Below, piece after piece: positions 833 through 25,989 of a stretch of DNA of 32,694 bases. The position numbers and the translations under genes are program-made. The stretch spans positions 1 to 32,694 of IMG/VR virus record IMGVR_UViG_3300002756_000060; one strand, 5' to 3'. The notes under the pieces are model-generated. The model was not told the origin of the DNA. It searched no databases and saw nothing but the letters and a program-made list of their open reading frames with translations. The DNA comes from a virus. Lineage: Duplodnaviria > Heunggongvirae > Uroviricota > Caudoviricetes. The first letter of the stretch is position 1; every line of letters starts with the position of its first letter.

Positions 833-3960
<3,128 letters not shown>

Positions 3961-4220
3961 TCGTGGCCACAAAAATATTGGTGGCAAAGGCCGAAAATCG
4001 GGCATTCGCTGTGGTTTTCACCGAGGTCTACTTTGCGGATAAAGTGAGCTTTCGCTGGGCACGCGCGAGTGTGCGCTTATCCTAAAATGACTTCGGAGAG
4101 ACTGGGTCGTTTGGAACCGTTCGCTCACTCGGCCTTGTCTGGCGGCCATGGCCCTTCGCCGACGATCATCCGCGCGGAAGACCATCATTGCCGTTTTTTG
4201 AGAATACTACATAATGCACA

Positions 4221-5219
4221 GTGGAGGTGACTTTTTTGGATTCTTACCTGCAGATCGCGCAGACAGTTCTGAGATCGGCCCGCCGCCCTATGGGGGCAAA
4301 GGCCATTCTCGACGTGGCCTATCAAGCGGGAGTGGTGCCCAAGCACTTATACGGAAAGACTCAGCAAAAAACCCTCCAGGCACGGTTGAGCGAGGAAATT
4401 CTTCATCATCGCGAGACATCCCCGTTCTACCGGACCAAGCCAGGGCAGTTTTTCCTGACCGAGTTTCTCGATGCCGATGATGTCCCGGTGGAGTGGAAGA
4501 CGCCCTTTCCCGCCCGTCGTCGGACGCGCGATCTGACGCGTGACAACACGCTGGCCGTGAGGGGGTCATTCCTTGACCGGTGGCGCCGGAGGACGGCGGA
4601 CGCGGACAGTTTCTTCCAAGCGGCGGAGGCCGAGGGTGCGATGGCCTATATGCATCCCAAAGAGATGAGTGCGCAAGGCTACTGCGCCACGTGGACCTTT
4701 GCAATGGTCGTTAAGGACGACTGCACCCTTGCCTATAGGGTTGGGCGCTACCGCGACGATCGCGACAACTACGCCATGCAGCGATCGATCGGCTTCCCCG
4801 GTCCACTTACAGTCGAAGACATGACGCTGTTTTCGCGCGACCGGCTCGGAGCCGAGGACAGCGCCGCGGACGTTCTGATCCAAGATTTGGACCTTTCCTA
4901 TGCGTCCTTCCATGGCCGCGAAAAGCACCTCCCGAAGATCGACCATGTCATGGTCGTGGACGAGGCAGAGTCGCTGAACGTTGTGATCGTGCTGTCGTGG
5001 CAGTGTCCCGAATGGTTCGAGCCGACGACGCGGCGCATGTCGCTCAACGACCCGCACTGGCTCTGCACTTCGATCCGGCATAACGATTTAAATGACTTCG
5101 AACCGTGGAGTTCTAGGATTCTGGCCGCGCGGGCCGCGGATAGGGAGCGCACGACAGTTGGCCACGAAACGGATCACGGAACAGCAAGCGGCCTTTCTCG
5201 TGTCAGAGTTGACGAGTAG
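4221..5219 (+). CDS. HARE-HTH-like DNA-binding domain protein (N-terminal winged-helix; C-terminal ~230 aa of unknown function)
   Basis: N-terminus DSYLQIAQTVLRSARRPMGAKAILDVAYQAGVV...TLQARLSEEILHHRETSPFYRTKPGQFFLTEFL fits the HARE-HTH pattern; GGAGG at 4223-4227 upstream of alternative TTG at 4236, so the exact start (GTG 4221 / TTG 4236) is uncertain. Confidence 0.6.
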   Translation: MEVTFLDSYLQIAQTVLRSARRPMGAKAILDVAYQAGVVPKHLYGKTQQKTLQARLSEEILHHRETSPFYRTKPGQFFLTEFLDADDVPVEWKTPFPARRRTRDLTRDNTLAVRGSFLDRWRRRTADADSFFQAAEAEGAMAYMHPKEMSAQGYCATWTFAMVVKDDCTLAYRVGRYRDDRDNYAMQRSIGFPGPLTVEDMTLFSRDRLGAEDSAADVLIQDLDLSYASFHGREKHLPKIDHVMVVDEAESLNVVIVLSWQCPEWFEPTTRRMSLNDPHWLCTSIRHNDLNDFEPWSSRILAARAADRERTTVGHETDHGTASGLSRVRVDE

Positions 5220-6840
5220 GGAAGATTCTCGCCGTCAGAAGGTCGCTCTCCAAAATCTTAGCCGCCTTTATCGAACCGGCCATCGGTTCGCCCCGGAGAC
5301 TGCGCCGCGCGTTGAGCAGCAGATCGTAGGGCTGACCAACATGAGCCGCGACGAAAAGGTCGTGCGGTGGGGACTGAACACCCTTGCGCAACTTGGCACC
5401 AAGGACAGCGCCGAGAGCGTCGAGTTGGCAATCAAGCGCCACGAAACCAAGCCCGAGATCGTGGCGGCAGGCATCTCGGCCCTAGCCCGCCTGCGCGCGG
5501 GCCAACTGTCCGGCATTGCGGCTTTACGTAGCGTCCCGCCGGAGGTTCAGATGCTCGCGGCTATGCAAACCGTAGATCCCAAGCGGTTAGCCGTCGACGG
5601 GCTCCAAATCGACCTCGATGTGGCCGATCCAGAGATATTGAAGCTGGCTCTGATCGTCGTCGGGCTCGATCGGGATGTGCAGCATCTACTCCATCCCAAG
5701 CACGAAAACGGCGTCATTGTGCGGGAACTCGGGCAACACGACGATCCCATCGTGCGCCAATACGCAGTTTGGGCCGTGATCGAAAATCGTCGACTGTCGA
5801 TCGCCCATCTCGGCATCGATATCAATCGCATCGAAGATCAGCCAGCGAACGTGCAGTCGAAGCTACTGCAACTTGTCTCGTCCTCTCTGCCCGACCTCAA
5901 TCAACGGCATGAAGCAATCTTGCGGGGAGCCGATCTTCCTACAGTCGACGCGCGTGAGGGTCTCGCCAAAGGTCTTCTGCACGCACACTATGACGGCCTT
6001 GCAGAGATAACGCTGGACTGGTTCGATATTGAAGGAAGCGGCCGCGTGAAGTTGCATCTAGCAGAACATTTCGCGCGTTTCGCTGACGACCAGCCAAGTT
6101 ATCGCGTCAAGGCCTTGGAACTCGTCGAGAGCGGCGGCAACCTGCGCGAGCGGGTCCTGCTGGGTGCGGAAGGGACAGCCTTCTTCAGCGACATCAGGAA
6201 AGCGGAAGGGCAAGCATCACTGGGACTCTTTGGTCTCGGGGGAGACGAACAAATGGCACGACTGGAGAAGGCGGTTCGCATCATGAATAGGGAAACTGTG
6301 CTGGTGCTCAATGCGACACCCGACGACTTAGGGCGCATTCGGGCAGACAAGGAGGGCGCGTTGCTTGAGCGCCAATTGGAGACCGTTAAGAACCGGGAGC
6401 GCGATCTTCTCGTCGTTCAAAAGTTCGCGGTCCGCCTGCAGGACATCCAAAAGGAGCTCCTTAACCATCGGCCGAAGATCCTGCACTTCAGCGGGCATGG
6501 TGGCGTCGGCGTGCTGTGTTTTGAGAAGGACGACGGGACAGAGGCCTTGATCGCCGGAGACGTTCTTGCTGAGATTCTGGACGTCTATGGAGAGCTTGAG
6601 TGCCTAGTTCTCCACGCTTGCTACACAGAAAGTGTTGCGCGGGCCTGTGCGAAACACGTTGGCGTCGTAATTGGCTCGACAGATGCTATCGACGACGAAA
6701 CCGCTCCGAAGTTCACCTACGCATTCTATCAGGCCTTGGCGAACGGCCGTCCCTACGAGAACGCATTCAGGGCTGGACAGGTCGAAGTCAGAACCGCTAG
6801 CGAGGTGGCCGCAGCCTGCTACAAGCTGTTCACCCGCTAA
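5092..6840 (+). CDS. HEAT-like repeat protein with C-terminal CHAT (caspase-like) protease domain
   Basis: C-terminus ILHFSGHGG...ECLVLHACYTESVARACAKHVGVVIGSTDAIDDETAPKFTYAFYQALANGRPYENAFRAGQ matches the CHAT His/Cys dyad and FY..L..G tail; N-terminal helical repeats (VVRWGLNTLAQLG, IVRQYAVWAVIEN). Start uncertain: ATG 5092 overlaps the upstream gene by 128 nt; GTG 5200, TTG 5209 and ATG 5341 are alternatives. Confidence 0.7.
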   Translation: MTSNRGVLGFWPRGPRIGSARQLATKRITEQQAAFLVSELTSREDSRRQKVALQNLSRLYRTGHRFAPETAPRVEQQIVGLTNMSRDEKVVRWGLNTLAQLGTKDSAESVELAIKRHETKPEIVAAGISALARLRAGQLSGIAALRSVPPEVQMLAAMQTVDPKRLAVDGLQIDLDVADPEILKLALIVVGLDRDVQHLLHPKHENGVIVRELGQHDDPIVRQYAVWAVIENRRLSIAHLGIDINRIEDQPANVQSKLLQLVSSSLPDLNQRHEAILRGADLPTVDAREGLAKGLLHAHYDGLAEITLDWFDIEGSGRVKLHLAEHFARFADDQPSYRVKALELVESGGNLRERVLLGAEGTAFFSDIRKAEGQASLGLFGLGGDEQMARLEKAVRIMNRETVLVLNATPDDLGRIRADKEGALLERQLETVKNRERDLLVVQKFAVRLQDIQKELLNHRPKILHFSGHGGVGVLCFEKDDGTEALIAGDVLAEILDVYGELECLVLHACYTESVARACAKHVGVVIGSTDAIDDETAPKFTYAFYQALANGRPYENAFRAGQVEVRTASEVAAACYKLFTR

Positions 6841-7136
6841 AAGACTCAGGCTTGTCGATTTCTTCCACTCTGATTTGAGCTGACATGACAGCCGCGTTAT
6901 ATACTTCGCCCGTTCCTAACGACTCATTCTGCTTTTCAGAACGTGGCGGGAAGTAGGTCCAGATCGGATCGAAACGCCAACTTGGAAACCCGAGTTTCCT
7001 TGAACCAAACCTTCGCAGCGCATTCCTTGAAGGTCCCCTTGGGCCGAGAGTGCACCCTCCCATTGGTTCCTCCCTGGCCCCGAACGTATACGGGGGGGCG
7101 CAGCGCGGCAGTTTTCCAGCGTCTGGCCTTTTCACC

Positions 7137-7325
7137 GGGGAATCCAGGCGGAATCCACCTGCCGAGTCATCCTGGAAAAAGCGACTCATTATCAAGGACT
7201 TGCCGAATCACGACCTGGCCAGGGTGGATTCTTTTACCGAATCCAGGGAATCCAGTTCGCGGAAGCCACAGCGCCGGAAGCCAGCCAGCGGAAGCCACCT
7301 GATGGGAAGCCATTGAATCCAGGTG
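7137..7325. repeat. Array of at least 10 short GGAA(T/G)CCA motifs in both orientations
   Basis: ggggaatccagg, cggaatccacc, gggtggattc (inverted), ccgaatccaggg, gggaatccag, cggaagccaca, ccggaagccagcc, gcggaagccacc, gggaagccattg, tgaatccaggtg. Confidence 0.6.
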
Positions 7326-7335
7326 CATTTTTCGT

Positions 7336-7419
7336 TTGACAAAGCTGCCCCCCTTGACTCATACCTTGATAATCGAAGAATGGCGCCCGGAGGAAACTCT
7401 CGCGGGCGTTTTTGTTTTT
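7336..7419 (+). promoter_or_regulatory. Promoter-like TTGACA/TTGACT/GATAAT elements followed by a GC stem (CGCCCG 7384-7389 / CGGGCG 7403-7408) and T-run tttttgttttt; candidate leader attenuator or terminator
   Basis: TTGACA at 7336-7341, TTGACT at 7354-7359, GATAAT at 7368-7373; hairpin plus U-tract; the same arrangement is conserved at 22422-22510. Confidence 0.4.
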
Positions 7420-7505
7420 CCAACATCGCGGACCCTGATGCTGTCGCCGACCGGTGCGGTCGCGCTCTCGCGTCTGTCCGCGTCTCACCACAGCAGAGAG
7501 ACCCC

Positions 7506-8768
7506 ATGGACCTTGTCTTCGCGCCAAGCGAGATCGAGGCGTGGCCGATCGAGCGGCTGCGCCCCTATGCCCGCAATGCCAAGATGCATGGTGAGGACCA
7601 GGTGGCCAAGATCGCCGCCAGCATGGCGAAGTTCGGCTGGACGGTGCCCTGCATGGTGTCCGACGATGGCGAGTTGATTGCCGGGCATGGCCGGGTACTG
7701 GCGGCCGCAATGCTGGGGCTGAAGGATGTGCCGGTGATCCGGCTGGCGCATCTGGACGAGGCCGAGCGGCGGGCCTACCGGATCGCCGACAACAAGCTCA
7801 CGGAACTCGGCGATTGGGACGAGACCGTGCTGCGCGACGAGATCGCGGGGCTGCTGGCCGAGGATTTCGACCTGTCGCTGCTGGGGATCGGCGACGATGA
7901 TCTGGATGCGCTGCTGCGCGACCCCGAAGCGCAGGACGGCGACGGCCCGATCGAGGGCGAGGACGACGTTCCGGAACCGCCGGTCACGCCGGTCTCGGTG
8001 GCGGGCGATCTCTGGCAGCTTGGCGCGCATCGACTGATCTGCGGCGACAGCACTGCGGCGGACGTGGTCGGGCGCCTGCTGGGCGATGTGCGCCCCCTGC
8101 TGATGGTGACCGATCCGCCCTATGGCGTGGAATACGATCCGTCCTGGCGAAACCAGGCGGGCGCCGCCAAGACCAAACGCACCGGCAAGGTGCTCAACGA
8201 TGACCGCGCCGACTGGCGCGAGGCCTGGGCGCTGTTTCCGGGCGACGTCGCCTATGTCTGGCACGGTGCGCTGCATGCCGCCGAGGTGGCGGAGTCGCTG
8301 ATCGTCTCGGGTTTTGCCATCCGCTCGCAGATCATCTGGGCCAAGGACCGGCTGGTGCTCAGCCGAGGCGATTACCACTGGCAGCATGAACCGTGCTGGT
8401 ATGCGGTGCGTACCAAGGGCAAGGGCCACTGGGCCGGCGATCGCAAGCAGACGACGCTGTGGCAAATCGCAAACAAGGATCAGGATGTGGCCACCGTCCA
8501 CGGCACGCAAAAGCCCGTCGAGTGCATGCGCCGCCCGATCCTCAACAACTCGAACGCCGGTCAGGCGGTCTATGAGCCCTTCATGGGATCGGGCACGACG
8601 CTGATCGCGGCGGAAACCACCGAACGGATCTGCTACGGGGTCGAGCTCAACCCGGCCTATGTCGATGTCGCCGTCAAGCGCTGGCAGTCCTTCACCGGCG
8701 CGGAAGCGGTGCTGGCGGACACCGGCGAGAGCTTTGCCAGCCTCAAGGCCAAACGGATGGCTGCATGA
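7506..8768 (+). CDS. ParB-like nuclease domain fused to DNA methyltransferase (beta-class, motif IV DPPY; N6-adenine type predicted)
   Basis: N-terminal ParB-type motif (RPYARNAKMHG...IAGHGRVLAA...YRIADNKLTELG); motif IV LMVTDPPYG; motif I YEPFMGSGTTLIAAE. The ORF is open from 7323 but the start is called at ATG 7506 by alignment with the paralog at 22593. Confidence 0.85.
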   Translation: MDLVFAPSEIEAWPIERLRPYARNAKMHGEDQVAKIAASMAKFGWTVPCMVSDDGELIAGHGRVLAAAMLGLKDVPVIRLAHLDEAERRAYRIADNKLTELGDWDETVLRDEIAGLLAEDFDLSLLGIGDDDLDALLRDPEAQDGDGPIEGEDDVPEPPVTPVSVAGDLWQLGAHRLICGDSTAADVVGRLLGDVRPLLMVTDPPYGVEYDPSWRNQAGAAKTKRTGKVLNDDRADWREAWALFPGDVAYVWHGALHAAEVAESLIVSGFAIRSQIIWAKDRLVLSRGDYHWQHEPCWYAVRTKGKGHWAGDRKQTTLWQIANKDQDVATVHGTQKPVECMRRPILNNSNAGQAVYEPFMGSGTTLIAAETTERICYGVELNPAYVDVAVKRWQSFTGAEAVLADTGESFASLKAKRMAA

Positions 8769-10132
8769 GCATGCATTTGCGTCCCAGCCAGATCGAGTTC
8801 TGGCCGCTGGACCGCCTCAAGCCCTATGCCCGCAACGCCAAGACCCATGACGCCGATCAGGTGGCGCGGATCGCCGCCAGCATGGCCGAGTTCGGCTGGA
8901 CCGTGCCCTGCCTGGTTGGCGACGATGGCGACCTGATCGCGGGCCATGGTCGCGTTCTTGCCGCCGCGCAGCTGGGCCTGGCGGAGGCACCCGTCATCGT
9001 GCTGGGCCATCTGACCGAGGCGCAGCGCCGGGCCTATCGCATCGCCGACAACAAGCTGACCGAGTTGGGCGGCTGGGACGAGGGCCTGCTGCTGGAGGAA
9101 CTGCGGGGGCTTATGGCCGCCGAGTTCGACCTCGGGCTGATCGGCATCCCCGAGGACGAGCTGGATGCCCTGCTGCGCGACGCCGATGACGACAGTGTGC
9201 CCATCGACGACGACACAGCCGATACCATCCCGGAGCCCCCGGCCGAGCCGATCACCCGGCCCGGCGATATCTGGGCGCTGGGCGCGCACCGGCTGATCTG
9301 CGGCGATGCCACCGACGCGGATGTCGTGGCCAGGCTTATGGAGGGCGCGCAGTCGTCGCTGATGTTCACCTCGCCGCCCTACGCCCAGCAGCGCGACTAT
9401 GGCGCGGCCAGGGAGACGGTGGGCGACTGGGACGCGCTGATGCAGGGCGTCTTCGCGGCGGCACCGGTCACCGACGCGGCCCAACTGCTGGTCAATCTCG
9501 GCCTCGTGCATCGCGACGGTGAGTGGCTCCCCTATTGGGAGCGCTGGGTCGAGTGGATGCGCAGCTCTGGCTGGCGGCGCTTCGGCTGGTATGTCTGGGA
9601 TCAGGGGCCGGGCCTGCCCGGCGACTGGAATGGCCGCCTCGCGCCCTCGCACGAGTTCATCTTCCACTTCAACCGCCAACCCCGGAAGCCCAACAAGACG
9701 GTGCCGTCCAAGCACGCGGGCGAAACCTTGGGCGGCGGTGGGCTGCGCGGGGTCAACGGCACCGTCCACGCCAAGCGAGGGGCCGGCAACGCGATCCAGA
9801 GCCATCGCATCCCGGACTCGGTGTTTCGTATCATGCGCCACAAGGGCGGGCTGGGTGCTGCCGGATCGCATCCGGCCGTGTTCCCGGTGGCGCTGGTCGA
9901 GGCCGTGCTGACCGCGTTCAGCGATCCAGGCGACCTGATCTACGAGCCGTTCTGTGGCTCCGGCACGCAGATCGTTGCCGCCGAACGCGCTGGGCGGCGC
10001 TGCTTCGCGATGGAGCTGGATCCGGTCTATTGCGACGTCGCCATGCGGCGATGGGAACTGGCGACGGGGCGGACGGCGCAGTTGGAAAATCGCAACGAGA
10101 CCACCATTGGCAAGGAGACAAAACAGCAATGA
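8765..10132 (+). CDS. ParB-like nuclease domain fused to DNA methyltransferase (beta-class, motif IV SPPY; N4-cytosine type predicted)
   Basis: ParB-type N-terminus (KPYARNAKTHDADQVARIAASMAEFGW...); motif IV LMFTSPPYAQQRDYG; motif I YEPFCGSGTQIVAAE; ATGA overlap with the upstream gene at 8765-8768. Confidence 0.85.
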   Translation: MSMHLRPSQIEFWPLDRLKPYARNAKTHDADQVARIAASMAEFGWTVPCLVGDDGDLIAGHGRVLAAAQLGLAEAPVIVLGHLTEAQRRAYRIADNKLTELGGWDEGLLLEELRGLMAAEFDLGLIGIPEDELDALLRDADDDSVPIDDDTADTIPEPPAEPITRPGDIWALGAHRLICGDATDADVVARLMEGAQSSLMFTSPPYAQQRDYGAARETVGDWDALMQGVFAAAPVTDAAQLLVNLGLVHRDGEWLPYWERWVEWMRSSGWRRFGWYVWDQGPGLPGDWNGRLAPSHEFIFHFNRQPRKPNKTVPSKHAGETLGGGGLRGVNGTVHAKRGAGNAIQSHRIPDSVFRIMRHKGGLGAAGSHPAVFPVALVEAVLTAFSDPGDLIYEPFCGSGTQIVAAERAGRRCFAMELDPVYCDVAMRRWELATGRTAQLENRNETTIGKETKQQ

Positions 10133-10638
10133 TCATCGACACCCCGATCTGGCGAAACGCCGACCTCATTCGGATCATTCCGATCACACGCGCGGACCTG
10201 AACCAGGCCATATCCCGAAACGACTTTCAGCCTGAAAACACACCCAAGCCCGGAAAGGCGCGCTGGTACAGCTGGAGAGACGTGGTGTCGGTTGCTGCCG
10301 CACAGGACTTGCGCAAACTTGGCTTTGGTCCGTCCATCGCATTTAGGCTGGTGCAAAACCACCTGTCACCGTTTCTGCGGGGTAGCATAGACGCCCCGGA
10401 CGATTGCGCAGGAGTGCTTTGGCTTATCCGTCCAAGTGACGACCATCTCAACATTGAGACCCCGTGTGAGTTCCTGCGCCACACCGAATACGAGGCACTC
10501 CTTGTCACGCCAGACGAGAGCGCCTGCATCATCGTGAATATCGGTCGCATTGCAGCACGCGTTCGCGATGACCTGCAGGCGACCGAGACCGCCAAGGTCA
10601 TCCGTGAGGAATTTCAGATCACGGGACCGGTGATGTGA
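10129..10638 (+). CDS. hypothetical protein (169 aa)
   Basis: ATG 10129 overlaps the upstream stop (ATGA); AAGGAGA Shine-Dalgarno at 10112-10118; conserved paralog at 25216-25725. Confidence 0.6.
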   Translation: MIIDTPIWRNADLIRIIPITRADLNQAISRNDFQPENTPKPGKARWYSWRDVVSVAAAQDLRKLGFGPSIAFRLVQNHLSPFLRGSIDAPDDCAGVLWLIRPSDDHLNIETPCEFLRHTEYEALLVTPDESACIIVNIGRIAARVRDDLQATETAKVIREEFQITGPVM

Positions 10639-10844
10639 CCCAATCGCGCGGCATGTCGCTGATCGAGGCCATCACCAATGTCGCGGTGGGCTATGCGCTG
10701 GCCGTCGCCGCGCAGATCGCGGTTTTCCCGTGGTTCGGCCTGCATGCGAGCATTGGCGAGAACCTCACCATCGGCGCCCTGTTCACCGGCATCTCGCTGC
10801 TGCGCAGCTACGCGCTGCGCAGGCTGTTCGAACGCTGGTGGTAA
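10635..10844 (+). CDS. small hydrophobic (probable membrane) protein, 69 aa
   Basis: GTG start overlapping the upstream stop (GTGA); two hydrophobic stretches (VAVGYALAVAAQIAVFPWFG, LTIGALFTGISLL); conserved paralog at 25722-25937. Confidence 0.5.
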   Translation: MTQSRGMSLIEAITNVAVGYALAVAAQIAVFPWFGLHASIGENLTIGALFTGISLLRSYALRRLFERWW

Positions 10845-10853
10845 CGCGCGGGA

Positions 10854-11309
10854 TCAAGCCGTGTCGAGCTTGTACACGGTGCCACGCCCGTCAACTTTCT
10901 CGGCAGTGACGGGCAGGCCCAGCTTCTTCTTGAGCCCGCCCGAGATCAGGCCACGTGCACTATGCGGCTGCCACGAGGTCGCCTCGACAATCTCGGCGAT
11001 GGATGCGCCCTCGGGCCGCTGAATGAGCGCGATGATCTGCGCCTGCTTCGTGCCCGAGCGGATGGCGACGGGTTTTGCGGTGTCCGCAGCTTCGGGCGTC
11101 GGTGCGACATCGGGCTTGGGCTTTCCCTTCCGCGCGCTGGCGACAGCGCTGACCACCACCGGCTCGATCCCGATGGCCTCCAGCCCGGCCTCGGTGGCGA
11201 TCAGCGTGGTGCCATGACCGTCACCGGTCTCGCGCCAGAGCGGCTCGCCGCGGCGGCTGTCGGCATCGACCTCCTCGATCCAGCCATTGGTGATCATGCG
11301 AGTGAACAC
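10854..11309 (-). CDS. DUF3489-like protein, probably a 5'-truncated copy
   Basis: Aligns with the C-terminal ~150 aa of the 193-aa paralog at 26938-27519 (WRETGDGHGTTLIATEAGL...SIAEIVEATSW...GRGTVYKL); start abuts a divergent gene at 11312 with no promoter space. Confidence 0.5.
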   Translation of the reverse strand: MFTRMITNGWIEEVDADSRRGEPLWRETGDGHGTTLIATEAGLEAIGIEPVVVSAVASARKGKPKPDVAPTPEAADTAKPVAIRSGTKQAQIIALIQRPEGASIAEIVEATSWQPHSARGLISGGLKKKLGLPVTAEKVDGRGTVYKLDTA

Positions 11310-11311
11310 CG

Positions 11312-12058
11312 ATGAGCCTGCATCCCGGTACGGATCGCTACAACCCGGCTGGGAACAGCGACTTCACCCGCAAGGCGGAGGCGCTGGCGCTGGGCATCCC
11401 CAACTGGTCGACACCGAAGGCGACAGACGGCGCGAAGGGTGGGCCGGGCCAGAGCTATGGCTCGGGCGGGACGCCACCCCTGCCCGCGCAGGCGGCACAA
11501 TGGCAGACGCCGGTGGCCGACGACCAGATGGATCGGCTGCGTGGCAAGATCAACAGCCGGGGCGAGCCGAAGCTATCGGCACAGGCGCTGCAATGGCCGA
11601 CCCCGGCGGCGCAGAACTGGAAGGGGAGCAGCCCGGCCAGCGTGACGCGGGCGGATGGCAAGAGCCGGATGGATATCCTGCATTACCGGGCGGAGCAGGG
11701 CTTCACCCACCCGGCCCCGGCGATCATGCGGCATGGGCGGCAGTGCTCGCGACACGCCCCGATCTCACGCCCGCTGTGGGCTTCGATGATTGCCTCGCAT
11801 GGGCGCGGCGCATGTCGGCGGCTCCTGAAGGGCCGCTCACGGCGGCGGCTGAACCCGCTCTTCGTCGGATGGTTGATGGGCTGGCCCATCGGTCACGCGC
11901 TCTGCGCCTGCTCGGCAACGGAGTTCATCCTCTGGCAGCAGCGCATGCGTGGCGCGCTCTCGCAGCTGCCCATGGCCTCGGGCCCGTGGATCTGGCGGCC
12001 ATCGGACGAGGCCCAGCGCCCCGCGCAGATGACGCTGTTTGAGGTGTGGTCTGAATGA
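11312..12058 (+). CDS. hypothetical protein with three W-x-TP motifs
   Basis: 248-aa ORF; NWSTPKATDGAKGG, QWQTPVADDQ, QWPTPAAQNWKGSS; stop overlaps the next ATG (ATGA at 12055-12058). Confidence 0.5.
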   Translation: MSLHPGTDRYNPAGNSDFTRKAEALALGIPNWSTPKATDGAKGGPGQSYGSGGTPPLPAQAAQWQTPVADDQMDRLRGKINSRGEPKLSAQALQWPTPAAQNWKGSSPASVTRADGKSRMDILHYRAEQGFTHPAPAIMRHGRQCSRHAPISRPLWASMIASHGRGACRRLLKGRSRRRLNPLFVGWLMGWPIGHALCACSATEFILWQQRMRGALSQLPMASGPWIWRPSDEAQRPAQMTLFEVWSE

Positions 12059-12717
12059 CGATACAAGGAAAGATCGGGCGGCCAGGCGGCCAAAAAACCA
12101 AACGCGCGCTGGGCGTGCAGGCGGCGCTGGAATGGGCCTTTGGCGTGGAAAAGGCACAGCTGGAACTGCCCCTACCGAAGGGCGTGGCCGAGGAAGGCTT
12201 CGGCTTTGGGCTCGAATACGTGCTGCTGCAACGCGCCATACTTGGCTGCAAGATCGACGGCGGCCAACACAAGTTGGGTGGCTATGTGCACGTGGACGCC
12301 GAGGTGATCGCCGCCACCGTCGCGGGCATGCCCGACACCTTGGGTGGTAAGCGCATGGCGATCCGGGTCGCGGAACTGGCACGCGCCGGGCTGACCCCGG
12401 ACTGGATGCCCAGGGCCGTGCCGCGCTGCGTGCCCGTCGATATCAAGCGCAACCGGCATGGTGATCGCGCGGTCAGCGTCGTGGTCGGCACCGCCCGCGC
12501 GCTGATCAGCGGCAAGTGGCGCATCGTCGAGGTCCGCGCCTGCCCCGTCACCTTCACCCCAACCCCACACCAGATCGACGCCGCCCGCCAAGCCTATGAC
12601 GACTGGTGGCAGGCACTGGACTGGGTACGGGATGGGCTTATCGCGGGCGACATGCTGCGGGAGATTGATGTGACAGGGGCGATGCCGAGCGTGCGGCCGT
12701 GGGCTGCAAAGCCTTGA
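12055..12717 (+). CDS. hypothetical protein (220 aa)
   Basis: Translationally coupled to the upstream gene; no recognisable motif. Confidence 0.5.
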   Translation: MTIQGKIGRPGGQKTKRALGVQAALEWAFGVEKAQLELPLPKGVAEEGFGFGLEYVLLQRAILGCKIDGGQHKLGGYVHVDAEVIAATVAGMPDTLGGKRMAIRVAELARAGLTPDWMPRAVPRCVPVDIKRNRHGDRAVSVVVGTARALISGKWRIVEVRACPVTFTPTPHQIDAARQAYDDWWQALDWVRDGLIAGDMLREIDVTGAMPSVRPWAAKP

Positions 12718-12778: not shown

Positions 12779-15652
12779 ATGTTCACCGCTTACCATGGCA
12801 AATATACCGCATATGATCTTACGAAGCTGGCGCCGCCCGGCTCGGACGATCAGTTGTCAATGTCGTTGTTCGATGCATCGGTTGATCTCAATCCTCATCA
12901 GATTGAGGCCGCGATGTTCGCGCTTCAATCGCCGCTGGCTGAAGGCGCGATACTTGCGGATGAGGTCGGCCTCGGCAAAACCATCGAGGCAGGCATTGTC
13001 CTTTGCCAGAAATGGGCTGAGCGAAAACGGAAACTAATCATCATCTGCCCAGCGGCCATTCGACAGCAGTGGGCTGCAGAACTGACGAACAAGTTCAATC
13101 TTCCCGCAGTCGTCATTGACGCTCGGACCTATCGACAGATGAAGATGGAAGGCATTCCATTCCCTTTGTCACAGAAGCGGATCGTCGTGCTATCCTATCA
13201 TTATGCTGCAAAGCTTCAGGATGAGCTTCGGCAAGTCGATTGGGATCTGGTTGTTATCGACGAAGCGCACAAGCTTCGTAACTCGTACCGACCCAGCAAT
13301 CGCATCGGGCAAGCTCTTCAACGAGCAGTCGAAGGCCGCAAAAAGCTCCTGCTGACGGCTACTCCCCTCCAAAACAGCTTGATGGAGATATTCGGGCTTA
13401 CGAACTTCATTGATCCAAACATTTTCGGCGATGCCAACAGCTTCCGGTCGAAGTATGTGAATGCCGGTGGCGATCTGCCCGAGCTTCGCGCAAGGCTCGC
13501 GGATTTCTGCAAGCGCACGCTTCGGAAGCAGGTTCTCGAGTATGTCAAATATACTCAGCGCCGTGCCATCACGCAGCCATTCTCGCCGGCGGAGAACGAG
13601 CAGGCGCTGTATGACGGCATTACGCGCTTCCTACAACGAGAGGACACCTATGCAATACCCTCTCAACAGCGCCATCTAACCGTTCTTATCCTGCGGAAGC
13701 TTCTCGCTTCGTCATCACAGGCCATCGCAGGGACGCTTGAGACCCTACGCGCCCGCTTGGTAGCCCTGCAGAAAGGGGAACCGGTAAAGGATGATCTGGC
13801 GGAGGTGATTTCATTCGAGAACGAGCTCGAAGAAGAAATTCTCGACGAATGGGATGATGACGATGCGCAAGACCCCACAGGGGCCGAGCAAATCGACTTC
13901 GCCAAGCTTCGCCTGGAAATCGACGATATTTCAGGTCTGATCCAGCTTGCACATTCGATCCAGATCGATACTAAGTCCAAAGCGCTGCTACAGGCTCTCG
14001 AGATAGGCTTTTCGGAGCAGGAGCGGATGGGCGCACAGAGAAAAGCCCTGATCTTCACAGAGTCGCGCCGCACCCAAGACTATCTCCGCGATTTCCTCGC
14101 GCGCTACGGTTACGCCAATCAAATTGTGACCTTCAGTGGCACTAATTCCGACCGCAAGGCACAGGAAATTTACGAGCGCTGGCTTACCGATCCGAAGAGC
14201 GCCGAGCAGATTACAGGATCGCGCGCCATCGATGTTCGTGCTGCACTGATAGAAGAATTCCGCGACAATGCCTCGATCATGATCGCAACCGAGGCCGCCG
14301 CCGAGGGTGTCAACCTGCAATTCTGCTCGCAGGTCATCAACTACGACCTTCCGTGGAACCCGCAGAGGATCGAACAGCGCATCGGACGCTGCCATCGCTA
14401 TGGGCAGACGCATGATGTGATCGTCGTGAACTTCCTGAACGAACGCAACGATGCAGATAAACGGGTTCACGCGCTTCTAACCGAGAAGTTCAATCTGTTC
14501 GATGGTGTATTTGGGGCTTCAGACGAGGTCTTGGGAACGATTGAGTCCGGCGTCGACTTCGAAAAGCGCATTCTGGCGATTTACCAGGACTGCCGCACTC
14601 CGGAGGCCATCGCCGCAGCTTTTGATGAACTTCAGACCCAGCTCGAGGAACAAATTCGGAGCCGAATGGAGGATACAAGGCGGGCCCTGCTGGAGAACTT
14701 CGACGAGGATGTCCACGCCCGCCTGAAGCTGCGCCTCGCTGACGCCCGCGAACAGTTGGACCGTGTCGGGCGCCGGTTTTGGGATCTGACCACTGCTATC
14801 CTCGCCGACAAGGCCAAATTCGATGAACCAAATCTGGCCTTCGACCTTCTGGCCCCGCCGACCCGCGACCTGCGACCGGGCCGCTATCACCTGATCTCGC
14901 GGAACTCGGCCGCAGACCCGGCCAAGAACGAACACGGCTATTTCCTCTACCGGCTGTCGCACCCTCTTGGCGAGCATGTCATTGAATCGGCCAAGGCCGC
15001 TGACACGCCAGTGGCCGAATTGCGGTTCGATGTGACCAATCACCCCACACGCGTGGCCATCGTCGAGGCGCTGAAAGGGCGGCGCGGCTGGCTGACGCTG
15101 CGCAAACTTGCGGTGACGACCTTCGAGACCGAGGAATACCTGCTATTCTCGGGCATCGACGACAATGGTCGCTCCATCGACCACGAAGCCTGCGCCAAGC
15201 TGTTCTCGGTCGGTGCTGGCGTTCACCCCATCGACATGCCCGCCCCTGCCATCGCCGACCTCCTTCAGGCTGAGGCCGAGCAGCATGCCAAAGCCACCTT
15301 GAACCGGTCGCTGGATGCCAACAACAAGCACTTTGCCTCGGCCCGTGAAAGGCTGGAGCGCTGGGCTGAGGACAAGGTCTACGCGGCAGAGAAGGCGCTG
15401 AAGGACACCAAGGAACAGATCAAGGGGGTGCGTCGCGAGGCGCGGGCAGCTACCACACTCGAAGAAGAAGCCGCCATCCAAGCCAAACTGCAGGAACTGG
15501 AACGTCGCCAGCGCAAGCAGCGGCAGGAAATCTTCAACCAGGAAGACGAAGTGGCCGACAAGCGGGACGAGTTGATCGCCAACCTTCAAAAGCGGCTCAG
15601 CCGTGGCCACTCGGTTGAATCGCTGTTTACGGTCCGCTGGGCCGTCGTGTAG
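12779..15652 (+). CDS. SNF2-family (SF2) helicase/ATPase
   Basis: Motif I LADEVGLGKTIEAG; motif II LVVIDEAHKLRN; motif III LLLTATPLQNSLMEIFGL; C-terminal helicase motifs ALIFTESRRT, IMIATEAAAEGVNLQ, DLPWNPQRIEQRIGRCHRYGQ; AT-richer codon usage than neighbours. Confidence 0.9.
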   Translation: MFTAYHGKYTAYDLTKLAPPGSDDQLSMSLFDASVDLNPHQIEAAMFALQSPLAEGAILADEVGLGKTIEAGIVLCQKWAERKRKLIIICPAAIRQQWAAELTNKFNLPAVVIDARTYRQMKMEGIPFPLSQKRIVVLSYHYAAKLQDELRQVDWDLVVIDEAHKLRNSYRPSNRIGQALQRAVEGRKKLLLTATPLQNSLMEIFGLTNFIDPNIFGDANSFRSKYVNAGGDLPELRARLADFCKRTLRKQVLEYVKYTQRRAITQPFSPAENEQALYDGITRFLQREDTYAIPSQQRHLTVLILRKLLASSSQAIAGTLETLRARLVALQKGEPVKDDLAEVISFENELEEEILDEWDDDDAQDPTGAEQIDFAKLRLEIDDISGLIQLAHSIQIDTKSKALLQALEIGFSEQERMGAQRKALIFTESRRTQDYLRDFLARYGYANQIVTFSGTNSDRKAQEIYERWLTDPKSAEQITGSRAIDVRAALIEEFRDNASIMIATEAAAEGVNLQFCSQVINYDLPWNPQRIEQRIGRCHRYGQTHDVIVVNFLNERNDADKRVHALLTEKFNLFDGVFGASDEVLGTIESGVDFEKRILAIYQDCRTPEAIAAAFDELQTQLEEQIRSRMEDTRRALLENFDEDVHARLKLRLADAREQLDRVGRRFWDLTTAILADKAKFDEPNLAFDLLAPPTRDLRPGRYHLISRNSAADPAKNEHGYFLYRLSHPLGEHVIESAKAADTPVAELRFDVTNHPTRVAIVEALKGRRGWLTLRKLAVTTFETEEYLLFSGIDDNGRSIDHEACAKLFSVGAGVHPIDMPAPAIADLLQAEAEQHAKATLNRSLDANNKHFASARERLERWAEDKVYAAEKALKDTKEQIKGVRREARAATTLEEEAAIQAKLQELERRQRKQRQEIFNQEDEVADKRDELIANLQKRLSRGHSVESLFTVRWAVV

Positions 15653-15685
15653 ACCAGCCGAGTAACATCAAGGAAAACAAGAACA

Positions 15686-18600
15686 ATGAGCAATTTTGAC
15701 GCCCTCGTTGCCAAGCTGCGCGAAATCTTCCAGATCGACCGGCCTGACCTCGATTTTGGCGTCTACCGTATCCTCAACGCCCGCGCGGGGGAAATCGAGG
15801 ATTACCTGTCCAAGCGTCTGAAGGCGCGGGTGGCCGAAGCACTGGCTGCCGGTGCTGCGGCCAATACCGAAACGCTGAAGGCCGCGATTGAGAAAGCGCG
15901 CGAAGCTGCTGAGGCCGCAGGGTACAATTCAGACGAAGCTCCGAGAGTTCTGAGCCTCCAGAAGGAACTTGCAGCCGCCAGCGGGGCCACGTCGGAGCAT
16001 GAAAATCAGGTCTTCTCGCACCTGTTGACCTTCTTCTCGCGCTACTACGACAAGGGCGATTTCATCAGCCAGCGCCGGTACAAGGGTGATACCTATGCCA
16101 TCCCCTATTCCGGGGAAGAGGTCGTGCTGCACTGGGCGAACCGCGATCAGTATTACATCAAAAGCGGAGAATCCTTCTCGAACTTCAGCTTCAAGCTGGA
16201 TGACGGTCGACTTGTGCATTTCCGCCTTGTCGCTGCCGATACGGCCAAAGACAACCGCAAGGATAACGACAAGGAGCGCCGCTTCGTTCTGGCCACCGAG
16301 CGCACGGTCACGCGCCTTGACGAGGAGGGCGAGGGTTTTGAAGAAACCATCCGTCCGATCGAGGAAGAGGATGGCGCGCTGGTCATCCGGTTCGACTTTG
16401 CAGCACAGCCCAAAGGGACCAAGCAAGAAAAACTGGTTGAGGCGGCGGTGGAAACCATTCTGGACAGCGAGACTTTCAAATCGAGATGGCTGGAACTGAC
16501 CAACCGCGCGCCGACGGAAAAGAAACCGCAGCGCACCTTGCTGGAAAAGCACCTGACGACCTACACGCAAAAGAACACCGCCGATTACTTCATTCACAAG
16601 GATCTGGATGGTTTTCTGCGGCGCGAACTGGATTTCTACATCAAGAACGAGGTGATGAACCTGGACGATGTGCAGGAGGCCGGGGCCTTTGCCGCCATCG
16701 AAAGAAACCTACGGATGATCCAATGCCTGCGGGCCATCGCTCTGGACCTGATTACCTTTCTGGCCAGCATCGAGAATCTCCAGAAAAAGCTATGGCTGAA
16801 AAAGAAATTCGTGGTGGCGGCGCAGTATTGCGTGACGCTGGACCGGGTGCCGGAGGCGCTTTACCCGGCTATCGCGGCGAACCCCGCGCAATGGGCGCAG
16901 TGGCATGATCTGGGGATGCGGGCATCCGCGGCGCCGGGGACGGTGGAGGATCTGAAAGCCGCGCCCTTCCTGATGGTGGACACCGCGCTCTTTGATGCGG
17001 GTTTCCGGGCTGACCTGTTGAAGGCGATCCCCGATCTGGATGCTAGCCTCGACGGGCTGCTGGTTCATGGGGACAATTTTCAGGCGCTGAACCTTTTGCA
17101 GGATCGATACCGGGAAAAGGTCAAATCAATCTATATCGACCCGCCTTACAACACTGACGCAGGACCGATCAGTTACAAGAACGGCTACCGGAGTTCGTCG
17201 TGGGTTGCCATGATGCACGACCGCGTGAAACTCGGGCGTGAGCTATTGCCTCTCGACGGGTTGCTCACCGCCACGATCGATGACTATCAGTACCGTGAAT
17301 TGCACTTCGCCATTGAAGAGGTTTTTGGCGCTCAAAACCTCGCAGGTACCGTTGTAATCCGAATGAACCCGTCTGGCCGCCCGCTCCCACAAGGCTTCGC
17401 ACAGTCCCACGAATACGCAATCGTCGCGAAGCGGTCAGACTTAGCTCAGATCGAGAACTTACCGAGAAGCGAGAAGCAGAACGCCAGATATAAGCACCGC
17501 GATGACGACGGTCAGATGTACATGTGGGAACTGTTCAGAAAGCGCGGATCGAATTCCGAAAGAACTGACCGGCCTTCGCTGTATTATCCGATCTATCTCC
17601 GGGGTGAGGACTTTCGGGTTCCCCGAATGACTTATGATCCTGATCGCAAGGATTGGGATATTCATGAAGAACCGGATACCGACGAAAGCGTCATCTACCC
17701 TATTGACGACAACGGAACCTTGCGCACGTGGCGTGGCTCACCGGATGATTTGATCGATAATCCAAGCAACTATCGTGTGAAGATCGAGGACAGCAAAGTC
17801 ACGGTCTACTACAAGTTTCGCCCCAACTCTGAGGGTGTGCTTCCGCTCACCAACTGGATCGATGCCAAATACTCCGCAACGGAGCATGGAACGGGATATC
17901 TCAAGAACTTCTTTTCGGAATACAACGTTTTCTCCTATCCGAAGTCGATCTACGCGGTTGAAGACTGCATCAGGGTTGGTGGCGCAACGGCCAATGCAAC
18001 CGTCCTCGACTATTTTGCAGGATCGGGCACGACTGGACACGCAGTCATAAACTTGAACCGGTCCGACCAAGGGTCTCGAAAGTACATCTTGGCCGAGCAA
18101 GGCGCTTACTTCGAAACTGTCATTAAGCCACGCTTAAAGAAGGCAGTGTTTTCTGCTGATTGGTCAGAGGGTAAACCCACCGCCCCCGAAACCGGCATCA
18201 GCCATGCCTTCAAGGTACTCAAGATCGAGGGCTATGAGGACACGCTGAACAATCTTGATCTGAAGCGTTCGGAGGCGCAGGCCAGTCTTCTGGAACGGTT
18301 CAGCGCCGACAAGCGCGACGACTATTTGATGCGCTACATGCTGGATGTCGAGGGACGCGGCTCGCTCCTGTCCATCTCGGATTTCCGCAAGCCCTTTGAC
18401 TACTCGCTCAAGGTCGCCGTCGACAGCGCCGGGGCCTGGGAGGAGCGCAAGGTCGATCTGGTCGAGACCTTCAACTACCTGATCGGCCTGACCGTCCGCC
18501 ATATCGACATCCAGCTTCGCCAAGGCTTCGCCACGGTCGAGGGCTGGTTGCCAACGGGTGAGCGGACCCTGATCCTGTGGCGCGACTGCGATAAAATCGG

Positions 18601-18805
18601 CTATGAGGAATTGACGCGCCTGTGCGACAAACTGGCGATTAACCCGGCCGACAGCGAATACGACGTGGTCTACATCAACGGCGACCACAATATCCCCTCG
18701 GTGGTGGAAACGACCGAGGAAGAGGGCAGCGTTATCAAGAAGCTGATGCTGCGCCAGATCGAACCCGCCTTCCTCGATGCGATGTTCAACGTGGATGACG
18801 TCTGA
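15686..18805 (+). CDS. Type III Mod-like beta-class DNA methyltransferase with ~480-aa N-terminal extension
   Basis: LLVHGDNFQALNLLQDRYREKVKSIYIDPPYNT (motif IV) precedes VLDYFAGSGTTGHAV (motif I); AAGGAAA Shine-Dalgarno at 15670-15676; 1039 aa. Confidence 0.85.
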   Translation: MSNFDALVAKLREIFQIDRPDLDFGVYRILNARAGEIEDYLSKRLKARVAEALAAGAAANTETLKAAIEKAREAAEAAGYNSDEAPRVLSLQKELAAASGATSEHENQVFSHLLTFFSRYYDKGDFISQRRYKGDTYAIPYSGEEVVLHWANRDQYYIKSGESFSNFSFKLDDGRLVHFRLVAADTAKDNRKDNDKERRFVLATERTVTRLDEEGEGFEETIRPIEEEDGALVIRFDFAAQPKGTKQEKLVEAAVETILDSETFKSRWLELTNRAPTEKKPQRTLLEKHLTTYTQKNTADYFIHKDLDGFLRRELDFYIKNEVMNLDDVQEAGAFAAIERNLRMIQCLRAIALDLITFLASIENLQKKLWLKKKFVVAAQYCVTLDRVPEALYPAIAANPAQWAQWHDLGMRASAAPGTVEDLKAAPFLMVDTALFDAGFRADLLKAIPDLDASLDGLLVHGDNFQALNLLQDRYREKVKSIYIDPPYNTDAGPISYKNGYRSSSWVAMMHDRVKLGRELLPLDGLLTATIDDYQYRELHFAIEEVFGAQNLAGTVVIRMNPSGRPLPQGFAQSHEYAIVAKRSDLAQIENLPRSEKQNARYKHRDDDGQMYMWELFRKRGSNSERTDRPSLYYPIYLRGEDFRVPRMTYDPDRKDWDIHEEPDTDESVIYPIDDNGTLRTWRGSPDDLIDNPSNYRVKIEDSKVTVYYKFRPNSEGVLPLTNWIDAKYSATEHGTGYLKNFFSEYNVFSYPKSIYAVEDCIRVGGATANATVLDYFAGSGTTGHAVINLNRSDQGSRKYILAEQGAYFETVIKPRLKKAVFSADWSEGKPTAPETGISHAFKVLKIEGYEDTLNNLDLKRSEAQASLLERFSADKRDDYLMRYMLDVEGRGSLLSISDFRKPFDYSLKVAVDSAGAWEERKVDLVETFNYLIGLTVRHIDIQLRQGFATVEGWLPTGERTLILWRDCDKIGYEELTRLCDKLAINPADSEYDVVYINGDHNIPSVVETTEEEGSVIKKLMLRQIEPAFLDAMFNVDDV

Positions 18806-21800: not shown

Positions 21801-22122
21801 CTATCCTGACTTCCTGCTCTGGCTGGTGGACGACAAAACTGGCAAGCAGTGGCTATCATTCATCGATCCTAAGGGCATTCGAAACCTGAACATTTCGGAC
21901 CCGAAGTTTGGCTTGTATAGGGAAATCAAGCAGATCGAGAACCAGCTGGGTGACGGCATGATCAGCCTAAACGCCTTCATCCTGTCCGTGACGACCTTCA
22001 GCGACCTGCTAAATGTCACAGGCTCTACCACGAAATCGGAGCTCGAGGACCGAAATGTCCTATTCATGGGCGACGGGGGGCCGACATATCTTGATAAGCT
22101 GCTGGCCAGAGCCCTCACCTGA
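18805..22122 (+). CDS. Res-like ATPase/helicase with candidate C-terminal PD-(D/E)xK nuclease
   Basis: Walker A FWNATGSGKTLLLHV; Walker B-type LVLVDEGHRG; C-terminal YPDFLLWL...FIDPKG; start overlaps the Mod-like stop (TGATG), so co-operonic; 1105 aa. Confidence 0.75.
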   Translation: MARAAKKKRTFHHELVLNRWMLSHFYGDGLMTLKSRLGDDRFEGIDDDGQTKFFHELTRNLFNMDRVTEAELRRYDLNIVAYWQKITHRRNAATGELLTMKYFQYLSLLFTEIYLDWYFNRRQDLLDGLNAQMAAYRKEDGAEPFRDYSADDLNKLAFWNATGSGKTLLLHVNILQYLHYFQAGNGNLFPDRIILLTPNEGLSRQHLEEFRESGINAHVFDKNQTGSLFKGWVDVIEVTKLADEMGDKTVATGAFEGNNLVLVDEGHRGTGSAGGVWMARRAALVKGGFAFEYSATFSQSVAKGATVAKAEEDILKAKAKRLFDKTLKQLDDTERAQLQLTNEDRARARIDGIREAYAKAVLIDYSYKYFYADGYGKESLILNLDDKGYDNHGDLYFTACLLSFYQQLWLWDTHRDKIRDFNIEKPLWVFVGNTVAGEDSDILEVIKFLAWFLNHPSEATTWIADLVADKARLLDPKGNDVFAGRFSPLMQRDAATIYDDILKRLFNADARQRLKLVNLKNSKGELALRVGSFDPFGLINIGDDSGFFKNAEDSSDFDTEADDFGTGLFGTINQKDSKLNVLIGSRKFTEGWSSWRVSTMGLLNMGQGEGSQIIQLFGRGVRLKGRGMSLKRSLPAERPKGTHMERLETLNIFGVRANYMATFKDYLKEEGITPSDEIIQLDFPTRTNLPSGTRLKTLKLKDGYKDNQIKGFKRVHYPTLYEVPAEFAGKIKPPHVLLDLYPRVEAITTTANATAGAPDKRNRGKLSKAAIACFDWDAVFTAVQEYKLLKSWSNLKVDRERLYQFCLGDNSWYTLLIPQAELEVSDFSDVLRQQDIMLQLLTDYTDRFYQGLKAAYEGKFYDVAPVTEDSGSIIKLYQFEIENTDVGLEYKAKLEVLSALVASGKIGEASNWNAPHMVAISFGQHLYYPLLSPIKDAVVPLKMRPLAIGEPSEVQFVEDVMAYYDSPSGKERLKGFSLYLLRNADNRAKGLGFALAGNFYPDFLLWLVDDKTGKQWLSFIDPKGIRNLNISDPKFGLYREIKQIENQLGDGMISLNAFILSVTTFSDLLNVTGSTTKSELEDRNVLFMGDGGPTYLDKLLARALT

Positions 22123-22150: not shown

Positions 22151-22225
22151 ATGGTTCCTCCCGGGCGCGATCCGTATACGGGGGGGCTGAGCGCGGCATT
22201 TCGCTAGCGACTGGCTTTTTCACCG

Positions 22226-22427
22226 GGGAATCCACTTGGAAGCCACCCCGGCGGCCCTGCCGGAAATTGTGACTCAATTTCAGAACCTTACCCGACAGCA
22301 TCGGTGGCCAGGGTGGATTCCTTTTGGAAGCCAGGGAATCCACTTGGTGGGTTCTTTTGGCCAGAAAAGCCACCCTCAGGCCAGATCGGCAGAACACCTT
22401 GATTCCAAGCCACAAAATGGATTGACA
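22226..22427. repeat. Array of GGAA(T/G)CCA motifs in both orientations (paralog of 7137-7325)
   Basis: gggaatccacttggaagccacc occurs twice; ggtggccagggtggattcc (inverted); gattccaagccac. Confidence 0.6.
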
Positions 22428-22510
22428 TTTCTAGCCCCCTTGACGTACCCCTTGATTGTCGAAGAGTTGCGCCCGGAGGAAACCCCTCGCGGGCGCTTTT
22501 GCTTTCCCCC
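22422..22510 (+). promoter_or_regulatory. Promoter-like TTGACA/TTGACG/TTGATT elements followed by a GC stem (GCGCCCG 22469-22475 / CGGGCGC 22490-22496) and T-rich tract
   Basis: Same arrangement as 7336-7419; the conserved leader CATCGCGGACCCTGA follows in both copies. Confidence 0.4.
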
Positions 22511-22592
22511 ATCGCGGACCCTGACACAGCAACCGGCGTTTGCCGGGGCTTGCATTGGTCTGTCCGCCCTGCCCCGGATCCGAACCCCACCC

Positions 22593-25937: not shown

Positions 25938-25989
25938 TGCCAGTTCCTGATAAAAAATGCAGCTGAGAGAAGCGCCGAATTTTTGGCGC

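Follow-up and report, generated by a model that had tools for sequence, protein, structure and literature searches.

What do two overlapping genes do that lie between a Type I restriction gene and phage DNA? This question is raised by IMG/VR virus record IMGVR_UViG_3300002756_000060 (Caudoviricetes), of which positions 1 to 32,694 were analysed (the window, 32,694 nucleotides). The two genes, here called A and B, lie at positions 4,221 to 6,840. Gene A encodes a HARE-HTH winged helix joined to a domain of the Nudix fold type, and gene B encodes an ARM/HEAT-like helical solenoid followed by a predicted caspase-like protease of the CHAT family. The pair proved to be a genuine two-gene cassette, which is both conserved and mobile. 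It is probably a conflict or defence cassette, as sequence comparisons suggest, because its effectors are swappable, because it is located in islands, plasmids and prophages, and because it decays by integration of insertion sequence (IS) elements.

Forty-two genome loci were collected, three by look-ups with B and 39 by a scan with a profile of A; the scan was pattern-limited and covered one genome for each of 100,044 species, and three of the loci (L009-L011) are near-identical. A B-type gene or its remnant was located directly 3' of A in 40 of the 42 loci, and in the remaining two (L011 and L030) the contig end is reached first. A was never met without a B-type gene among these loci. The sequence-only reading of this DNA, which was made from the letters and their open reading frames (ORFs), had staked its proposal of a module on the co-occurrence of both genes across genomes, and the pairing proved to be strict. 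Overlaps of 4 to about 60 nucleotides between A and B are common, so that the genes look translationally coupled in their sequences, and the subtypes of A track the subtypes of B. Clustering of 467 flanking ORFs gave no third conserved gene. ORFs of 104 residues located 5' of the pair in two loci (L002 and L003) were considered as a third gene and rejected, as they are unrelated to each other. Nearly all hosts are Alphaproteobacteria, belonging to the Rhodobacterales, Hyphomicrobiales (including Agrobacterium Ti plasmids, Sinorhizobium and Rhizobium), Rhodospirillales, Sphingomonadales (including Zymomonas), Maricaulales and Parvularculales.

The longest reading frames of genes A and B are two plus-strand ORFs, 4221-5219 and 5092-6840, and both genes are likely to start further in. 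The search with A gave 370 matches, mostly of about 300-330 residues and the closest of 327 residues, and the alignment of these homologues begins at LDSYL. At least 219 relatives of B were found, mostly of 558-566 residues and many on contigs equal in length to those of relatives of A, and their alignment begins at LATKRI. Homologue lengths and alignments therefore indicate TTG 4236 as the likely true start of A and TTG 5158 as that of B. The coordinates of the features are listed in Table 1.

The sequence-only reading had proposed a HARE-HTH-like N-terminus for the first gene, and HEAT-like helical repeats with a C-terminal CHAT domain bearing a His/Cys dyad for the second. All three proposals were borne out by profile and structure searches. 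The Pfam HARE-HTH profile (PF05066) matched residues 10-81 of ORF 4221-5219 with an E-value of 8e-8 and 33 bits, above the curated cutoff of 25.9. The AlphaFold2 (AF2) model of A, with a predicted local distance difference test score (pLDDT) of 80, shows a winged helix at the N-terminus, connected by a flexible linker to a domain of about 200 residues. The linker motif FPARRRTRDL has a low pLDDT (58). The larger domain shows the alpha/beta/alpha Nudix fold. The Pfam NUDIX profile did not match A even at an E-value of 0.1, and the Nudix box GX5EX7REUXEEXGU is not present: by our own reading of the alignment, the helix has A-x-x-V-L-I-Q-D-L-D-L at the place of REUxEE. Since the Pfam match is missing and the box is degenerate, sequence comparison assigns this domain to the Nudix fold and not to the Nudix hydrolases, and it is more likely to be a binding module than a hydrolase. 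A profile of A gave nothing significant against the sequences of the Protein Data Bank (PDB). The description of the partner as a DNA-binding HTH protein therefore held for the HARE-HTH domain, and the second, degenerate Nudix-fold domain had been overlooked. HARE-HTH domains have been suggested to read adenine methylation, and that of ASXL1 bound DNA with N6-methyladenine in pull-downs (PMC6591016).

One alternative is that A is a mere ligand-responsive repressor of its operon, of the NrtR type or the WYL/BrxR/CapW type, and that B defends alone, with its HEAT repeats recognising a phage protein. We consider this unlikely. Despite the nearly invariant recognition helix of A, no conserved operator was found in 49 regions upstream of A; the best 8-mer, with one mismatch, occurred in 17 of the 49 regions, compared with 14-18 in shuffled sequences. 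The domain order in A is the reverse of that in NrtR. A also possesses many invariant surface motifs and an invariant basic linker, more than a repressor usually needs; it was not found without a B-type gene and has diversified together with the B subtypes. The repressor explanation is weakened by the lack of an upstream motif, by the gene overlap with its apparent translational coupling, and by the co-variation of A and B subtypes.

The CHAT domain of B was matched by Pfam at residues 441-571 of ORF 5092-6840 with an E-value of 1.4e-8 and 34.9 bits, above the cutoff of 24. Both His447 in HFSGHG and Cys488 in LHACYT (HAC or NAC in the homologues) are invariant in 27 homologues, the identity of which to the window protein goes down to 43%. 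In the AF2 model of B (pLDDT 85.7), a helical solenoid of residues 1 to about 355 is followed by a short disordered linker and an alpha/beta domain. The sole match in a sequence profile search of the PDB was SAVED-CHAT (8tl0), with an E-value of 1e-21, and the same structure was the top match of Foldseek (E-value 2.4e-8, about 190 columns), covering the CHAT domain only. Foldseek matched the solenoid to importin-alpha and designed armadillo proteins, and Pfam HEAT_2 matches were found in relatives of B. Profile and model agree that the C-terminal domain is a bona fide CHAT domain of the caspase-like clan CD and a predicted protease. As for the separase/Csx29-like architecture that had been suggested, the fusion of helical repeats to CHAT is present; the closest solved CHAT domain is that of SAVED-CHAT 8tl0 and not of separase or Csx29.

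The solenoid is combined with different C-terminal modules. Among the 37 intact genome loci, 25 carry CHAT on the HEAT scaffold and 12 carry an uncharacterised C-terminal module instead. A HMMER search with a profile of the solenoid gave 536 representative clusters, the top 150 of which were classified with our own hidden Markov models. The majority form, with 108 of the 150 clusters, bears an uncharacterised domain of about 130 residues, and CHAT was found in 15. Four clusters, with proteins of about 685 residues, bear the nucleosidase domain PNP_UDP_1 (Pfam E-values down to 7e-16; PADLOC CBASS 'Effector PN-superfamily', E-value 3e-16). The other 23 gave no module match and are mostly fragments. 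An A gene is located upstream of each module type of B. In one PNP locus (L045), B starts right beside a HARE-HTH gene and is followed by an integrase; in another (L046), an upstream ORF of 250 residues, incomplete because the contig ends within it, overlaps the start of B. On its conserved scaffold, the family therefore carries alternative effector domains (CHAT, PNP_UDP_1 and the uncharacterised domain), a property used to recognise defence systems. The suggestion of a stand-alone CHAT protease partner is correct for the window copy; the family scaffold mostly bears other modules, and this swapping had been missed.

In a neighbour-joining tree of the solenoid, CHAT forms belong to one clade (12 of 12), and PNP forms are intermingled with uncharacterised forms. 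Because the CHAT clade is monophyletic and CHAT is found in few clusters, this tree places the window copy of B in a minority lineage that is derived within a larger family. The top-scoring representative (P0242, 484 residues) was considered as a recent module swap and rejected, as it is a truncated fragment of the CHAT type. The module of about 130 residues consists of an N/G-rich stretch (VTNNN...GxxQxGAxSxxGxAxNxG), followed by helices and an amphipathic C-terminal helix. Pfam had nothing for it, and a search with its own profile gave one match only. Its C-terminal helix has a mean Kyte-Doolittle value of 1.15, with 60% above 1.0; as this is just moderately hydrophobic, the module is not put forward as a transmembrane effector.

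The A proteins of CHAT-type and non-CHAT loci have all main motifs in common, including ARRRxR(D/E)L. A role of ARRRxR as a mere cleavage site of CHAT was considered and rejected, because the partners of non-CHAT forms keep the motif equally.

The surroundings of the pair were examined in 38 loci. Within 2.3 kb, the most frequent Pfam families were Resolvase (5), Phage_integrase (4), ResIII (4), UvrB (3) and Mrr_cat (3), given as raw counts. Transposases were also present, and the PADLOC models matched over the same distance were Mrr-type restriction, MADS mad2/mad3, Type I methyltransferase/S, PifA and NYN. On a metagenome contig with a pair 79% identical to that of the window (L047), the pair is flanked by a tyrosine integrase on one side and a large serine recombinase on the other, with Type I HsdM/S, PIN-FitA and toxin-antitoxin genes nearby. 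In IMG/VR, the pair was found on six predicted viral contigs, in one of them 1.2 kb from a terminase gene and in another 2 kb from a tape-measure gene. No gene A was found in the sequenced phage genomes of INPHARED.

On the Agrobacterium plasmid pTi_AR125 (L044; record positions 176431-190098), the A-B pair is embedded in a dense island of genes of immune type. Besides TIR proteins, the island encodes a TIR protein paired with a caspase-family protein, an arrangement similar to type IV Thoeris; a metallophosphoesterase, an S8 peptidase and two more CHAT proteins are encoded there as well.

B was found in a decayed state next to an intact A. In a Roseobacter metagenome-assembled genome (L010, 10923-12893), B is split by an IS transposase, and in Primorskyibacter flagellatus (L005, 10923-11177) it is cut to 84 codons. 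Such decay of B with an intact A fits a costly or toxic B.

The same contexts bear on a second alternative, in which the pair is a toxin-antitoxin-like addiction module of plasmids, prophages and islands, with B as toxin, A as neutraliser and no sensing of phage. The pair is carried on plasmids and beside recombinases, and on the Zymomonas plasmid pZZ6.01 (18 kb) a non-CHAT pair is located amid toxin-antitoxin genes; B is inactivated in some genomes in which A is intact, and the toxic C-terminal modules are interchangeable. However, a partner of 327 residues with two conserved sensor-type domains is atypical of antitoxins, and several copies are chromosomal insertions of the single cassette among housekeeping genes. 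Many toxin-antitoxin modules also defend, so that this alternative overlaps with the defence explanation. Taken on its own, addiction is improbable.

The third alternative is an ordinary module of cellular regulatory proteolysis or stress response, with no role in conflict. CHAT proteins are not all immune, and two loci (L001 and L002) have housekeeping neighbourhoods. Nevertheless, the patchy spread (39 loci, with the near-identical ones included, in the scan of 100,044 species), the carriage on plasmids and prophages, the exchange of the protease for a nucleosidase or for an unrelated module, and the gene decay all fit poorly with a cellular role, and we regard it as very improbable.

The explanation that we favour, with moderate confidence, is that A senses and B executes, as in systems that combine a sensor with swappable effectors, and that the pair acts against phages or plasmids. 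A would be the subunit that senses and licenses. With its HARE-HTH winged helix, it would bind DNA, possibly reading the modification state. The pseudo-Nudix pocket, which has lost the hydrolase box, would most likely bind a nucleotide or a DNA base, in addition to or instead of the reading of DNA. B would be an adaptor-effector that forms a physical complex with A, its ARM/HEAT solenoid holding A and restraining the C-terminal CHAT domain. The invariant ARRRxR(D/E)L linker of A perhaps docks in the groove of the solenoid, as suggested by the importin-alpha-like fold and by the linker motif, which is invariant and has a low pLDDT. Once A has met its trigger, the CHAT domain would be freed or activated and would cleave cellular or phage proteins, and this cleavage would lead to growth arrest or cell death, by which the infection would be stopped. 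The substrates could be few or many: the immune caspase-family protease of SAVED-CHAT has a specific substrate (bioRxiv 10.1101/2023.06.23.546230), and that of type IV Thoeris shows promiscuous Arg-directed cleavage (bioRxiv 10.1101/2024.10.24.620036). In sister lineages, the PNP_UDP_1 nucleosidase or the domain of about 130 residues would do the same job in place of CHAT. The details of the linker docking and of the trigger, which come from motif and fold analogies, are held with less confidence than the division of labour between A and B. In its most specific form, the pair would be an unnamed alphaproteobacterial immune system in which the pseudo-Nudix/HARE-HTH protein reads a DNA modification or a nucleotide alarm and the ARM-docked linker licenses CHAT, PNP or the modules of about 130 residues; this version is tentative and, taken as a whole, rather doubtful.

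Several observations weigh against the favoured explanation. Several loci (e.g., L001) are located amid housekeeping genes, and the neighbour figures are raw counts. The HARE-HTH domain also binds proteins, for example in the delta subunit of RNA polymerase. The invariant acidic residues D217 and D219 are kept in the Nudix-fold domain of A, so that this domain may have non-canonical catalysis. The docking of the RRR linker in an ARM groove is a hypothesis taken from the resemblance of the modelled fold to importin-alpha. The majority module of about 130 residues weakly matches the PADLOC model PDC-M14B, with E-values of 1.6e-4 and 2.5e-3 (L034, 12146-12406, and L043, 6111-6389), a lead only, which hints that this domain is common to another candidate defence system.

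The surroundings of the pair in the window agree with the sequence-only reading, which had described two adjacent, slightly overlapping genes in an AT-richer islet, downstream of a Type I HsdR and upstream of phage DNA, with no CRISPR/gRAMP, gasdermin, CBASS cyclase or STAND NTPase nearby. Both genes are on the plus strand, and they overlap by 62 nucleotides with the likely starts and by 128 nucleotides with the longest ORFs. The guanine-plus-cytosine fraction is 0.597 for gene A, 0.585 for gene B and 0.53-0.56 for the spacers beside the pair, compared with 0.64 for hsdR and 0.66 for the downstream DNA. The gene upstream of A encodes a full-length Type I HsdR, and the DNA downstream of the pair is that of a phage, with small and large terminase genes and phage-type ParB-methyltransferases. 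The right part of the window is assigned to a prophage because of the terminase genes. Pfam or PHROGs scans of the larger window ORFs gave no CRISPR, gasdermin, CBASS cyclase or STAND genes. Integrase and tRNA genes were searched for in the window and not found.

Table 1. Features of the A-B pair and the terminase genes of the window (positions in the window).
Feature	Position	Strand	Evidence or remark
Promoter-like site TTGCCG-16-CATAAT, 5' of gene A	4188..4215	+	Consensus scan; 2 sites in region vs 1.1 expected, weak alone
Ribosome-binding site GGAGGT, 7 nucleotides before the TTG start of A	4223..4228	+	Sequence
Gene A (likely start), 327 residues: HARE-HTH, basic linker, Nudix-fold domain, variable tail	4236..5219	+	Longest ORF from GTG 4221
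HARE-HTH winged-helix domain	4248..4463	+	Recognition helix GKTQQKTLQARLSE(D/E)IL nearly invariant
Linker motif FPARRRTRDL	4506..4535	+	Core ARRRxR(D/E)L kept in CHAT-type and non-CHAT-type partners
Nudix-fold domain, degenerate Nudix box	4548..5135	+	Conserved YRxGRYRDDRD, LFS, DLDLS, CPxWFEPTTRRLSLN, DFEPWS
Gene B (likely start), 560 residues: ARM/HEAT solenoid and predicted CHAT protease	5158..6840	+	Longest ORF from ATG 5092; 62-nucleotide overlap with A
ARM/HEAT-like helical solenoid, conserved scaffold of whole family	5158..6222	+	Foldseek; Pfam HEAT_2 in relatives
CHAT caspase-like protease domain (predicted)	6283..6837	+	Pfam PF12770; PDB 8tl0 matches
Codon of predicted catalytic His447, in HFSGHG	6496..6498	+	Invariant in 27 sequences
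Codon of predicted catalytic Cys488, in LHACYT	6619..6621	+	Invariant in 27 sequences
Small terminase	29554-30123		PHROG 57, E-value 4.5e-28
Large terminase	30071-32104		PHROG 15, E-value 2e-265

Two small ORFs, 37-354 and 401-832, are located directly 5' of hsdR, the second overlapping the hsdR start codon by 4 nucleotides; neither had a match in Pfam, NCBIfam or PADLOC. Since no hsdM or hsdS is present inside the window, the genes of the Type I system may be split up or continue past the left edge.

A stretch of about 4 kb is present twice in direct orientation, at window positions 7064-11300 and 22152-27400; the two duplicates have diverged to 75-84% identity and are spaced by about 15-16 kb. 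Each duplicate contains a common leader of 130 nucleotides, a promoter-like TTGACA...CTTGAC region, a ParB-N6/N4 methyltransferase, a second methyltransferase and a gene of the DUF3489 type. The duplication could represent two related tandem elements or a prophage with a doubled early region. With its end at 6840, the A-B pair stops shortly before the first duplicate and is not part of it. Between the duplicates, positions 12779-22122 encode an SNF2-family helicase (957 residues), an N6_N4 DNA methyltransferase (1039 residues) and a ResIII/DEAD helicase (1105 residues). The element encodes at least five DNA methyltransferases, including four ParB-type or stand-alone ones, and this is a heavy self-modification or anti-restriction load, adjoining a cassette whose HARE-HTH might read DNA methylation. 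Two adjacent phage-type genes at window positions 11312-12717 (phrog_27243, E-value 1e-141, and phrog_9306) recur with 73-75% identity at positions 2699-4008 of the metagenome contig L047 mentioned above. The cassette and these phage-type genes may travel on related mobile elements.

If the favoured explanation is confirmed, the pair would represent a defence family with an unusual receptor, a HARE-HTH joined to a Nudix fold without the hydrolase box, coupled through an ARM/HEAT adaptor to a caspase-like protease. In the most specific form given above, a non-catalytic Nudix fold acting as immune receptor would be a new class of sensor, and the domain of about 130 residues would be a new effector domain. 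As the commonest form in the family, the latter is a candidate for a new toxic effector. With CHAT, a PNP nucleosidase and an uncharacterised domain on one scaffold, the family is a natural experiment in effector exchange. Phage defence has been little studied in the host orders Rhodobacterales, Hyphomicrobiales and Sphingomonadales. For the question of how regulated cell death arose in evolution, caspase-family proteases that have helical-repeat adaptors are of interest as well.

The sequence-only reading had found the pair unlike any system that could be named, and this view still stands. PADLOC (2023) 2.0 and NCBIfam (2026) gave no system-level match for A, B, or the non-CHAT and PNP variants, no model of either library matched A or B, and the database names of the homologues of A and B are generic. 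No paper describing the pair was found in a literature search that left out most subscription journals, so that an earlier description is possible.

The closest solved relative of the protease domain of B is SAVED-CHAT, found in hybrids of type III-B CRISPR and CBASS (PDB 8tl0). SAVED-CHAT is an immune CHAT protease that is inactive until its sensor domain is triggered (Steens et al., bioRxiv 10.1101/2023.06.23.546230). There, the sensing is done by a fused SAVED domain, which binds cyclic triadenylate (cA3) and forms filaments; in B an ARM/HEAT solenoid is present instead, and the HARE-HTH/Nudix-fold partner is a separate protein. No SAVED domain was recognised in B, the N-terminus of which is ARM/HEAT. 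Another system for comparison is Craspase, the complex of type III-E gRAMP/Cas7-11 and the TPR-CHAT protein Csx29. In Craspase, helical repeats are fused to CHAT and a separate nucleic-acid-sensing partner licenses proteolysis, and the same logic may apply here (see PMC10952713). However, the repeats of Craspase are TPR and its partner is an RNA-targeting complex guided by CRISPR RNA, whereas the repeats of B are HEAT/ARM. Csx29 was not among the top structural matches of B in Foldseek, and neither the window ORFs scanned nor the top families of the neighbour census contained cas-type or gRAMP-like domains; a CRISPR array was likewise absent from both window and census.

Outside CRISPR, PMC10952713 lists Borvo (BovA), a single-gene CHAT anti-phage system (Millman et al. 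2022). The system described here differs in being a strict pair with a conserved partner A and in having non-CHAT sister forms, and no PADLOC model, any Borvo model in that library included, matched B at an E-value of up to 0.1. In the two-gene operon of type IV Thoeris, a caspase-family protease is switched on by a sensor, whereupon it cleaves many proteins after Arg and aborts infection (bioRxiv 10.1101/2024.10.24.620036). This sensor is a TIR enzyme making N7-linked cyclic ADP-ribose (N7-cADPR). In contrast, A had no TIR match; as it has no TIR domain and only a degenerate Nudix box, it is not an evident producer of a signal. The two kinds of pair are neighbours on the Agrobacterium pTi plasmid, where the TIR-caspase pair adjoins the A-B pair.

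The Nudix-related regulators NrtR and AraR share the Nudix and winged-helix fold types with A, in reverse order; A differs from them in the HARE type of its winged helix, in having no conserved upstream operator (49 loci) and in its strict tie to a gene for a HEAT effector. The PNP_UDP_1 effectors of CBASS, Detocs and related systems are the same module as that of the sister B proteins, not of the window copy, and the upstream sensing partner differs. The pair is a variant of the known kind of system that joins a sensor to swappable effectors, with an unusual receptor and an uncharacterised majority effector.

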